From: a virus
Taxonomy: Duplodnaviria; Heunggongvirae; Uroviricota; Caudoviricetes
Virus record (IMG/VR): IMGVR_UViG_2737471849_000007
Reading direction: 5' to 3' (one strand)
Length of the DNA stretch: 22,608 nucleotides
In this document: piece after piece, positions 1,099 through 19,301 of the stretch
How the letters are laid out: every line of letters starts with the position of its first letter
Numbering within the stretch: position 1 is the first letter of the stretch
The notes under the pieces: model-generated
The model's database searches: none
What the model was told of the DNA's origin: nothing
The model's input: only the letters and a program-made list of their open reading frames with translations
Program-made: the position numbers and the translations under genes

Positions 1099-1156
1099 AA
1101 AAAGGGCGGCAGAGCAGTCACGGAGTAAAACTGATACCGCCAAACGTCACCAGAAA
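1099..1156 (-). ncRNA. dicF: DicF small regulatory RNA (antisense inhibitor of ftsZ translation)
   Basis: Reverse complement of 1099-1156 reads TTTCTGGTGACGTTTGGCGGTATCAGTTTTACTCCGTGACTGCTCTGCCGCCCTTTTT, matching remembered DicF and ending in a T-run; lies between ydfC and dicB. Ends approximate to a few nt. Confidence 0.85.
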
Positions 1157-6513: not shown

Positions 6514-6847
6514 ATACAGCGAACTCCATTGGTTTAGTTGGATATTTACTGTGCTGGACAAAAACGGTTTGCGGGGAAATCTTAGTTAAGTAGAATGACT
6601 GCGGGTGCTTGAGGCTATCTGCCTCGGGCACGAACACCAACGGCAGGTAGAGAAAAGCCCCAGTTAACATTACGCGTCCTGCAAGACGCTTAACATTAAT
6701 CTGAGGCCAATTTCATGCCAGACACATGTAGGTTAGCCTCTTACGTGCCGAAAGGCAAGGAGAAGCAGGCTATTGTTAACACCAAGCTGTAATGTCCCCT
6801 TTGAACCATTCTAAAATGTCCCCAGACAATTCTCTGGGGGATTTTTC

Positions 6848-12467: not shown

Positions 12468-12767
12468 AAAAATTCCTTAATACTGATAACTTGGCGCACT
12501 ATACACACGTTCCTGAAGAAAGCTATAGTTTTTTGATGGGGTTGAAGATGGCTGGATGTCTAAAATAAACATTGCTTCATATGTTCAACTATGCGTTAAT
12601 GATTGCGTCGGTTTGAAGAACAGACGATATACGAAGTAGTTTACTAAAGCAGTTCTCATTTCAGGTGTTATTCACTTATTCCTTCTTTGAGTCTCTCCAA
12701 TTAAGTACGAAGTCGTTTCTGTTATGCAAACCATTTATGCCGAAAGGCTCAAGTTAAGGAATGTAGA

Positions 12768-12983
12768 ATGTCAAATAAAATGACTGGTTTAGTAAAATGG
12801 TTTAACGCTGATAAAGGTTTCGGCTTTATTTCTCCTGTTGATGGTAGTAAAGATGTGTTTGTGCATTTTTCTGCGATTCAGAATGATAATTATCGAACCT
12901 TATTTGAAGGTCAAAAGGTTACCTTCTCTATAGAGAGTGGTGCTAAAGGTCCTGCAGCAGCAAATGTCATCATTACTGATTAA
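12768..12983 (+). CDS. cspB: Cold-shock protein CspB (71 aa)
   Basis: Track [41 protein letters not shown]... with canonical RNP1/RNP2 motifs; AAGGAATG RBS; long AT-rich 5' leader. Confidence 0.92.
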
Positions 12984-13267
12984 AATTCATCGCTCGTCTG
13001 TATACGATAACGAAGAAGGCTGATGCCTGAGTAGAGATACGGACAGAGTAGTGAATATTGGATCTCTTTAATAAAAAGTAAGGAGGTCCAATACATGAAA
13101 CAATGGCTAGCATATTTGGCAAAATCTTAATCAGGAAAAGTATGCTAACCATTGTGGTGAAGTGCAGGTTTGCTGCATGAATAGTTTTACAGCAGAAGCT
13201 AACTGCTGGCATGGCAAAACAAAGTGCGTAAGTGGATGACTCCCACAAAAAGCACCACAATCTCAAA

Positions 13268-13346: not shown

Positions 13347-13517
13347 TCAGGCTACAGCTTTAAGATTTGTCTGGAATACTTTGTTGCAATGAGGGCAGAT
13401 CAAAAGGGCACCTTTTTGTACTCTTGAAAAACTGTGTTCTGACTCTTGGGTGCAGTTTGGGCAGGAACATTTAACGAGATAATTACGGCGTGATTTTGAG
13501 TTTTTACGTTCTGACAT
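13347..13517 (-). CDS. Small zinc-ribbon protein (56 aa from ATG rc 13515-13517)
   Basis: Internal ATG of track ORF 13347..13568 with AGGAAAA about 9 nt upstream; MSERKNSKSRRNYLVKCSCPNCTQESEHSFSRVQKGALLICPHCNKVFQTNLKAVA has CxCxxC...CxxC. May correspond to a K-12 small protein (possibly ynfU), not asserted. Confidence 0.5.
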   Translation of the reverse strand: MSERKNSKSRRNYLVKCSCPNCTQESEHSFSRVQKGALLICPHCNKVFQTNLKAVA

Positions 13518-15292: not shown

Positions 15293-15655
15293 GGTAATAT
15301 TAAATCGGAACATTTACATCGCGGAATGTAAAATTTAAATAAAAAGGACTCTTCCATGAGCCAAAATTCCTGAAATCTTAAGGGTAAGATAAAAGGTCTT
15401 AATCAGAATGACACGTTATTATTAATAAATAAAGCTATTCTTTCATTGCTGTGTTTTTCTTTACAAAAGTAATCCTTGCTATGGGTGGTTAATCATGCGT
15501 TAATGGTGTTCTGGTTTGTTACAAATTTATCTGAAGCAGTCATTGTTATAATTTTATTATTTGTACCTCTTGAGATTTCCTTGTTGGTTTTTCTCTCTGA
15601 TATTTTTTTTCGGACCATTCTGCCCAAGGGCTAATTTCTTCAAAAGGTAATAATT

Positions 15656-15868
15656 ATGTCTAACAAAATGACTGGTTTAGTGAAATGGTTTAACCCTGAA
15701 AAAGGTTTTGGTTTCATCACGCCGAAAGATGGCAGCAAAGATGTGTTTGTCCATTTCTCAGCAATTCAGAGCAACGATTTCAAAACATTAACTGAGAATC
15801 AGGAAGTTGAATTTGGTATTGAGAACGGACCTAAAGGTCCTGCCGCTGTTCATGTAGTGGCGCTTTGA
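15656..15868 (+). CDS. cspI: Cold-shock protein CspI (70 aa)
   Basis: Track [41 protein letters not shown]...; CspA-family RNP motifs. Confidence 0.92.
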
Positions 15869-15956
15869 GGTAGACAATATTACAAACCATATTCACTTTA
15901 GATGCCCGTGTTGTCATGGTTCCCAGTATAGAACATCATCTTTTGATGTTTCTGAC

Positions 15957-16067
15957 ATGAATCCTTTCGGGGCAAAATGTATCTTTTGTAAATCAATGAT
16001 GATTACATTTGATAATATTTCACAATACTTAAATGCCAGCCGTCTGTCGTTGGATTTAAAAAAGTGA
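15957..16067 (+). CDS. Small Cys-rich zinc-ribbon-like ORF (36 aa from first ATG; domain extends upstream to about 15879)
   Basis: Frame open from 15858; in-frame sequence ...HFRCPCCHGSQYRTSSFDVSDMNPFGAKCIFCKSMMITFDNISQYLNASRLSLDLKK; CPCC lies upstream of the first ATG (15957); possible ATT start at 15879 with GAGG 8 nt upstream. Confidence 0.35.
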   Translation: MNPFGAKCIFCKSMMITFDNISQYLNASRLSLDLKK

Positions 16068-16071
16068 AAAT

Positions 16072-16096
16072 GAAGGCTCCTTCGGGAGCTTTTTTG
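16072..16096 (+). terminator. Intrinsic terminator after the cspI / zinc-ribbon ORF unit
   Basis: GCTCC-ttcg-GGAGC hairpin followed by TTTTTT. Confidence 0.55.
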
Positions 16097-16214
16097 CTTG
16101 GTATCTATTCGATGGATACTCACATACTACGGTAACATCATGAAAAAAATCATAGTTTTTTTTAACTCTGAACCTGCAGTGGTAGTGCCAGCGATGACTG
16201 GAGTTAACACCATC

Positions 16215-16370
16215 ATGCGTGAATATCCAAATGGCGAAAAAACACACCTTACTGTAATGGCCGCAGGGTTTCCATCTCTGACCGGAGATCATAAAGTCAT
16301 TTATGTAGCCGCGGATCGACATGTTACTTCAGAAGAAATTCTGGAAGCAGCAATAAGGCTCTTGAGTTGA
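16215..16370 (+). CDS. ynfN: Cold-shock-associated small protein YnfN (51 aa as remembered; same frame is open from ATG 16140 = 76 aa)
   Basis: C-terminal 51 codons MREYPNGEKTHLTVMAAGFPSLTGDHKVIYVAADRHVTSEEILEAAIRLLS of track ORF 16098..16370; sits immediately upstream of gnsB. Confidence 0.55.
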   Translation: MREYPNGEKTHLTVMAAGFPSLTGDHKVIYVAADRHVTSEEILEAAIRLLS

Positions 16371-18726: not shown

Positions 18727-19301
18727 TGGCATTCAGAATGAGTGAACAACCACGGACCATAAAAATTTATAATCTGCTGGCCGGAACTAATGAATTTATT
18801 GGTGAAGGTGACGCATATATTCCGCCTCATACAGGTCTGCCAGCAAACAGTACCGATATTGCACCACCAGATATTCCTGCTGGCTTTGTGGCTGTTTTCA
18901 ACAGTGATAAGGCATCGTGGCATCTCGTTGAAGACCATCGGGGTAAAACGGTTTATGACGTAGCGTCAGGGGACGCGTTATTTATTTCTGAACTCGGTCC
19001 GTTACCGGAAAATGTTACCTGGTTATCGCCGGAAGGGGAGTTTCAGAAGTGGAACGGCACAGCCTGGGTGAAAGATGCAGAAGCAGAAAAACTGTTCCGG
19101 ATCCGAGAGGCGGAAGAAACAAAAAACAGCCTGATGCAGGTAGCCAGTGAGCATATTGCGCCACTTCAGGATGCTGTAGATCTGGAAATCGCAACGGAGG
19201 AAGAAACCTCATTGCTGGAAGCCTGGAAAAAGTATCGGGTGTTGCTGAACCGTGTTGATACGTCAACTGCACAGGATATTGAATGGCCAGCACTGCCGTA
19301 G
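18726..19301 (+). CDS. tfaQ: Tail fibre assembly protein (191 aa)
   Basis: Track ORF; ATG overlaps the stfQ stop (TAATG); adjacent to the Pin invertase gene. Confidence 0.85.

Follow-up and report, generated by a model that had tools for sequence, protein, structure and literature searches.

The cysteine-rich open frame that follows cspI in the window (the whole 22,608-nucleotide stretch of viral DNA analysed here) is ynfQ, the Qin-prophage paralogue of the core gene ymcF, and is thus a gene already known and annotated. Its product is very probably a 62-residue protein initiated at an AUU codon at position 15879 and encoded on the cspI cold-shock transcript. The gene is identified by its annotation and its family, all 62 of its codons are under constraint, comparison of homologues places its start, and the weak AUU or AUC start is conserved across many genera. 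What follows sets out this evidence, weighs other readings of the frame, and considers a possible link between the start codon and the cold-shock gene upstream.

Identity and distribution of ynfQ

Translation of positions 15858-16067 gives a 69-residue open frame in which CPCC is followed, after 21 residues, by CIFC. This four-cysteine arrangement and the difference in frame from cspI had both been described correctly in the initial annotation, which was made from sequence alone and did not recognise the frame as an already named, annotated gene. In K-12 MG1655, ynfQ (b4724) lies within the cryptic prophage Qin at 1638256..1638444 with ATT as first codon. The RefSeq CDS corresponds to window positions 15879-16067, again with ATT as its first codon, and the annotated CDS of strain IAI1 maps onto the same interval. 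Many E. coli chromosomes match the 801 bases spanning the site at 100% identity; on these the gene is annotated as ynfQ or ymcF and its product is named either 'cold-shock protein' or 'cold shock small protein YmcF', the latter being the PGAP name. The gene order in the window is rzpQ, cspI, ynfQ, ynfR, ynfN, gnsB, ydfO, and the features of the locus are collected in Table 1.

YnfQ is a member of the YmcF-like family: residues 1-62 align with positions 1-62 of the 62-position Pfam profile PF23641 (E = 6.9e-32), at a score of 109.9 bits against a gathering threshold of 27. It also has the CPCC...C-x2-C cysteines and the IHFRCPCCHGSQYRTS block of YmcF-like proteins, and its gene has a CspA-family gene directly upstream. 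Searches of YnfQ against PHROGs gave no match, and those against NCBIfam nothing above cut-off.

A protein search returned 131 homologues, mostly of 62 aa, from across the Enterobacteriaceae. By sensitive DNA search, ymcF or ynfQ is matched in 5414 of 5426 complete E. coli genomes, and about 2130 of the 5426 (~39%) have the ynfQ type. A YmcF-like ORF also occurs in nine phage records (seven Escherichia, one Klebsiella and one Morganella). Five of the nine have no annotated feature over it, probably because gene callers disregard ATT starts; temperate Escherichia phages with the unannotated ORF include PhiR42_1, PhiR63_1, 2H10 and mEp460. Enterobacterial csp-ymcF loci were also seen in assemblies labelled Veillonella parvula, Mucilaginibacter and Chryseobacterium, and the locus labelled Veillonella parvula encodes a protein identical to the YnfQ of the window. 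These loci almost certainly reflect binning or culture contamination.

The name itself calls for care. The 'ynfQ' of VanOrsdel 2018 (PMC6001520) is another ORF, of 37 aa, at K-12 positions 1632890-1633003 between ydfJ and ydfK; it is a ynaM paralogue and appears to be the gene now named ynfT. The entry under that name in PMC6001520 is therefore no evidence for the ynfQ of the window.

With the gene, its family and its ATT start already in RefSeq, the K-12 annotation and Pfam, little of this is new. The case does show how a split metal-binding motif can lead, in raw sequence, to a real and conserved small gene whose start is near-cognate.

Table 1. Features of the ynfQ locus and other Rfam matches in the window
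Feature	Position	Strand	Evidence
cspI 5' untranslated leader, cspA-thermoregulator type	15510..15655	+	Rfam RF01766
cspI coding sequence, upstream cistron	15656..15868	+	ORF list; RefSeq in IAI1 and K-12
GAGG Shine-Dalgarno, overlapping cspI TGA (15866-15868), 8 nt before ATT	15867..15870	+	Sequence
ATT initiation codon of ynfQ	15879..15881	+	Annotated CDS start; homologous codon comparison
ynfQ coding sequence, 62 codons and TGA	15879..16067	+	Pfam PF23641, homologues, pN/pS
First Cys knuckle C9-P-C11-C12	15903..15914	+	Cys conservation; model pLDDT ~90 over residues 11-40
Internal ATG (Met27), first canonical start of the frame	15957..15959	+	Sequence; conserved poorly
Second Cys knuckle C34-I-F-C37	15978..15989	+	Cys conservation
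ynfR, 21-aa small protein, next cistron	16070..16135	+	RefSeq annotation
Terminator-like hairpin GGCTCC-TTCG-GGAGC plus T6, just past the ynfQ stop, within ynfR	16075..16095	+	Fold
ynfN, 76-aa ORF, co-regulated with cspI and ynfQ	16140..16370	+	RefSeq; PHROG 3425; RNA-seq table of PMC11228462
Other Rfam matches: second cspA thermoregulator (cspB), IS009, sok antitoxin RNA, DicF	12607-12999, 19069-19267, 6603-6774, 1104-1155	-	

Comparative evidence for the start of translation

In the frame of ynfQ a TAG occupies 15855-15857, and no ATG, GTG or TTG follows it before position 15957. As had been noted from the sequence, this first ATG falls between the two cysteine clusters (it is codon 27 counted from the ATT), and the ATT at 15879-15881 stands 8 nt downstream of a GAGG. 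The non-canonical start proposed there is the one used by K-12 curation and by RefSeq. PGAP annotations are propagated by homology and so are not independent of K-12 curation; the start was therefore tested separately, by comparing 80 homologous genomic loci from about 20 enterobacterial genera and examining the DNA codon by codon. This comparison independently backs the ATT.

The codon aligned with 15879 is ATT in 60 loci, ATC in 4 and ATG in the other 16. The ATG is found in the Klebsiella/Raoultella clade, in Silvania confinis and in Citrobacter sedlakii, with identical spacing to CPCC. Taxa with ATT or ATC include Escherichia (both ynfQ and core ymcF), Citrobacter, Salmonella, Kosakonia, Yokenella, Trabulsiella, Scandinavium and Siccibacter. 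At many ATT loci the frame is closed by a stop 12-24 nt upstream and holds no canonical start before the Cys pair, the next one being at codon 19 at the earliest and usually at codon 41, beyond the first Cys pair. AGG is kept at Shine-Dalgarno spacing in all 80 loci, and T[AG]AGG is present in every csp-linked locus.

The codons just downstream of the ATT, 2-26, which include the CPCC knuckle, form the most conserved part of the YmcF family; the family alignment is best conserved in its N-terminal block, IHFRCPCCHGSQYRTS, and is variable at Met27. With 73 distinct sequences, codons 2-26 give a pN/pS of 0.140 and codons 27-45 one of 0.136. Within codons 2-26, third positions vary in 25 of 25 codons, first positions in 12 and second positions in 11. 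Codon 27 is AAA in 35 of the 80 loci and ATG in 4. Conservation of codon 1, selection on codons 2-26 and the rarity of Met27 together argue that the conserved protein begins at 15879, and initiation of ynfQ at this rare ATT is thus supported by comparison. No mention of the gene occurs in the main text of the TetRP paper or in those of the Onc112 and retapamulin preprints.

A hairpin that would sequester the Shine-Dalgarno was considered as well. It is predicted within 15810-15930 (z-score -3.0) and pairs the Shine-Dalgarno with codons 7-8 (TTT AGA). These codons vary freely among homologues (Arg8 is CGC in 24 loci, AGA in 17 and AGG in 9, with other codons besides; Phe7 is TTC in 49 and TTT in 14), so that the hairpin is not conserved, and it was dropped.

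Other readings of the frame

Two other readings keep a functional gene and move its start downstream. A mechanical ORF finder lists only one ORF in this frame, a 36-residue peptide from ATG 15957 that would carry the CIFC pair alone and leave CPCC untranslated. That this peptide is the real product is very improbable. The four loci with ATG at codon 27 all encode a protein identical to that of the window, and an E. coli locus of 95% identity has Arg at this codon. The 26 codons that would be left out, at pN/pS 0.14, hold the family's most conserved block; neither AGG nor GGA occurs in the 14 nt before the ATG (TTGATGTTTCTGAC), and the ATG form matches no NCBIfam model. The comparison with homologues that the initial annotation had proposed turned up none that begins at the internal ATG and lacks the first Cys pair. 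The second in-frame ATT (Ile5, 15891) would give a 58-residue protein; it is a near-cognate codon upstream of the first Cys and lies 20 nt after the GAGG. This spacing exceeds the usual window of 7-15 nt from the centre of the Shine-Dalgarno (PMC3592434). Codon 5 moreover varies (CTC, for Leu, in ymcF and ATA or ATC elsewhere), in contrast to codon 1, which is ATT, ATC or ATG throughout, and it is with codon 1 that the Klebsiella-clade ATG aligns. We regard a start at Ile5 as improbable.

The remaining readings deny ynfQ a start of its own. The location in a cryptic prophage and the ATG at the homologous position in 16 loci would fit a decaying pseudogene that has lost an ancestral ATG, and loss of the start was the other possibility raised initially. 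It did not survive the comparison: none of the 80 loci has anything but ATT, ATC or ATG at the homologous codon, and the codons upstream of the internal ATG are under purifying selection. The 64 loci with ATT or ATC all retain intact 62-codon frames under such selection, and the near-universal presence of ymcF or ynfQ in E. coli given above also speaks against decay, which we consider highly unlikely. Extension of CspI at its C-terminus, by programmed frameshifting or stop-codon readthrough, might be suspected from the fact that the ynfQ frame is open from 15858 and so overlaps the last three sense codons of cspI, and from one C. sedlakii genome in which csp and ymcF form a single open frame. 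In that genome, however, csp is degenerate and ymcF has its own ATG. The gap between csp and ymcF measures 9 nt at seven loci, most of them from Kosakonia, and 10 nt at the others; the two genes thus stand in different relative frames in different lineages, which argues against fusion by frameshift or readthrough. The nearest upstream stop in the ymcF frame is anywhere from 12 to 285 nt away, depending on the locus, and lineages that have no csp at all retain the gene with ATG or ATT starts. An extension of CspI is extremely unlikely. We therefore proceed with ynfQ as a separate 62-codon gene that starts at the ATT.

The cysteines and the predicted fold

All of 44 aligned homologues have C9, C12 and C37, and at least 90% of them have C11 and C34; judged by this alignment, the cysteine pattern of YnfQ is not a chance feature. 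The spacing is that of a Cys4 zinc ribbon or rubredoxin-like site, with C9-x2-C12 and C34-x2-C37 about 20 residues apart and placed on predicted beta-hairpins. An AlphaFold model built from the alignment has pLDDT 90-93 over residues 11-40; it places short strands at 17-19 and 32-34 and, with less confidence, a helix at the C-terminus. In a Foldseek search of the PDB the best match was the TFIIE-alpha ribbon (E 0.5), and none reached E 0.001. A rubredoxin-like YnfQ with bound Fe2+ is the model given in a recent review (PMC13348028). YnfQ is thus predicted to form a small zinc-ribbon or rubredoxin-like site, and may bind metal.

A profile search of 1.84 billion representative proteins found only 42 matches. 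Nearly all are small stand-alone proteins and no informative fusion was among them, so domain fusions yield no clue to function. YnfQ may have a role in cold adaptation; it can be described at most as a putative small metal-binding partner of the cold-shock response.

The cold-shock transcript and the genes downstream

The Rfam match to RF01766 extends over 15510-15895 and scores 112.8 bits against a gathering score of 78. In an RNA-seq table (PMC11228462) cspI, ynfQ and ynfN change together, by 6.5-, 5.9- and 5.8-fold; in another column of the same table the three change by 38-, 42- and 51-fold. YnfR-SPA, a fusion to the 21-aa protein encoded directly downstream of ynfQ, rises strongly after cold shock (PMC6001520).

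In the account that we favour, the transcript bearing ynfQ would begin with the cspI leader at 15510 and be regulated by cold shock. The ribosome would be placed by the GAGG Shine-Dalgarno that overlaps the cspI stop, 10 nt upstream of the AUU, and the AUU would be read by the initiator tRNA. Part of the translation of ynfQ may come from ribosomes that have just terminated on cspI, by analogy with thrS-infC, and we infer that the weak start would keep YnfQ well below CspI in abundance.

Downstream of ynfQ, the ynfR reading frame is laid over the terminator-like hairpin behind the ynfQ stop. Folding of 16050-16140 gives a z-score of -3.1, and a scan of the opposite strand covered this stem as well. 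Ribosomes translating ynfR and termination of the cspI-ynfQ transcript would be in competition for one RNA segment. The product of ynfN matches PHROG 3425 over 1-76 of 76; the ORF has 76 codons in the window, and only 51 residues are annotated in K-12. YnfN-like genes lie downstream of ymcF-like genes in 26 of the 80 loci, in several genera.

The start codon and the upstream csp gene

In 49 of the 80 loci an intact CspA-family gene ends 9-10 nt before the ATT or ATC (10 nt in the window), with its stop codon embedded in T[AG]AGG. An ATG is found in four lineages that have a decayed csp or none, three times at codon 1 and once at codon 2. Upstream of the ymcF-like gene of Klebsiella and Raoultella, the DNA aligns with csp but is full of stops; Silvania has no csp near the gene; and in Atlantibacter the start reads ATT ATG, the ATG being codon 2. 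In Citrobacter sedlakii NBRC 105722 (locus L012, 1297-1689) codon 1 of ymcF is ATG, and a csp with KWFN changed to KEFN, VHFS to VPSS and the C-terminus lost runs into ymcF in frame, with no intervening stop. Either a genuine fusion or decay, or an indel in the assembly, could account for this.

Two lineages (eight loci of Pseudescherichia type and a single one of C. freundii) have no csp next to the gene and yet retain ATT; coupling is therefore not obligatory. At one of the Pseudescherichia loci (L018, 1482-1508) the csp coding sequence is missing and the start of a csp-like leader (taatcatgcgttaat) remains; a tiny ORF, ATG AAA AAA GGA TAC TAT TAT TAC TAA (MKKGYYYY), overlaps the ATT start of ymcF there. 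The ATG of this tiny ORF is missing from P. vulneris (L041).

Taken over all lineages, the association of start codon and csp suggests translational coupling, in a pattern that spans few independent lineages and is not absolute. It fits the idea that a weak ATT start suffices because ribosomes that have terminated on csp can reinitiate close by. Initiation at AUU or AUC ran at ~1-2% of AUG in one reporter study, at the time of which infC and pcnB were the only confirmed AUU starts in E. coli (10.1101/063800). In reporter work with short stop-start gaps, about half of second-cistron translation was reinitiation (PMC3592434). In vitro, mRNAs with AUU starts are poor competitors at low temperature (PMC5499595), which sits awkwardly with the placement of the gene on a cold-shock transcript. 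If AUU mRNAs are weak in the cold, de novo initiation on ynfQ should be weak too, and this is an added reason to suspect coupling.

We put forward, tentatively and as the less probable view, that the AUU/AUC start is a maintained regulatory device, one that ties synthesis of YmcF and YnfQ to translation of the upstream csp by termination-reinitiation, to the level of IF3, or to both. Such a device would explain the switches to AUG, at least four in number, where csp has decayed or is absent. If it exists, ymcF and ynfQ would bring to four the chromosomal E. coli genes whose AUU start carries functional meaning, infC and pcnB being the first two. The link of start codon to csp adjacency, undescribed in the literature searched, is a modest lead that bears on the use of AUU in bacterial operons.

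Comparison with known systems

The resemblance of YnfQ to known zinc ribbons is one of fold class. The zinc-ribbon modules of TFIIE-alpha, the MqsA N-terminal domain and eL43 carry two CxxC knuckles on beta-hairpins and are among the top structural matches to YnfQ; all of these matches are non-significant (E >= 0.5, TM about 0.4) and come with no sequence relationship. Closer at hand, YnfU (window 13347-13517, minus strand), a putative zinc-binding protein of the ECs_2282 family (NCBIfam NF047912), is another small stand-alone Cys4 protein in the same prophage. Its gene adjoins the other cold-shock gene, cspB, and its cysteines follow the pattern CxCPxC...CPxC. Unlike ynfQ, ynfU starts with ATG and lies on the opposite strand, and YnfQ is not a member of NF047912 (17.8 bits against a cut-off of 37).

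The closest relative is YmcF (E. coli K-12 b4723), which shares 66% identity with YnfQ over all 62 residues and has the same cysteine pattern. Like ynfQ, ymcF begins at an Ile codon 10 nt after a CspA-family gene, in its case cspG. It is a core chromosomal gene of nearly all E. coli, whereas ynfQ is the copy of Qin and lambdoid prophages and is also present in the seven Escherichia phage records; the internal Met27 is found in ynfQ only. The downstream genes differ at the two loci. A paralogous module shared by both was considered and rejected: YnfN and YmcE have no similarity, so that only the csp, ymcF/ynfQ and gns genes are common to both.

For the start itself, the comparison is with infC, which encodes IF3, and pcnB. 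Both have an AUU start behind a Shine-Dalgarno, as ynfQ does, and in both the start codon alternates with canonical codons across taxa, again as for ynfQ (10.1101/063800; PMC3592434). The AUU of infC also comes close after an upstream stop: the thrS-infC junction reads UAA GGU AUU and that of cspI-ynfQ reads UGA GGUAGACAAU AUU, the gap being 3 nt in the former and 10 nt in the latter. Experiments established the start of infC and pcnB and what it means for regulation (IF3 autoregulation and limiting expression), whereas the start of ynfQ is supported by sequence comparison and its regulatory meaning is hypothetical. What ynfQ has in common with this class is the lack of a canonical start upstream of the conserved domain, a Shine-Dalgarno at functional spacing and orthologues with ATG at codon 1.
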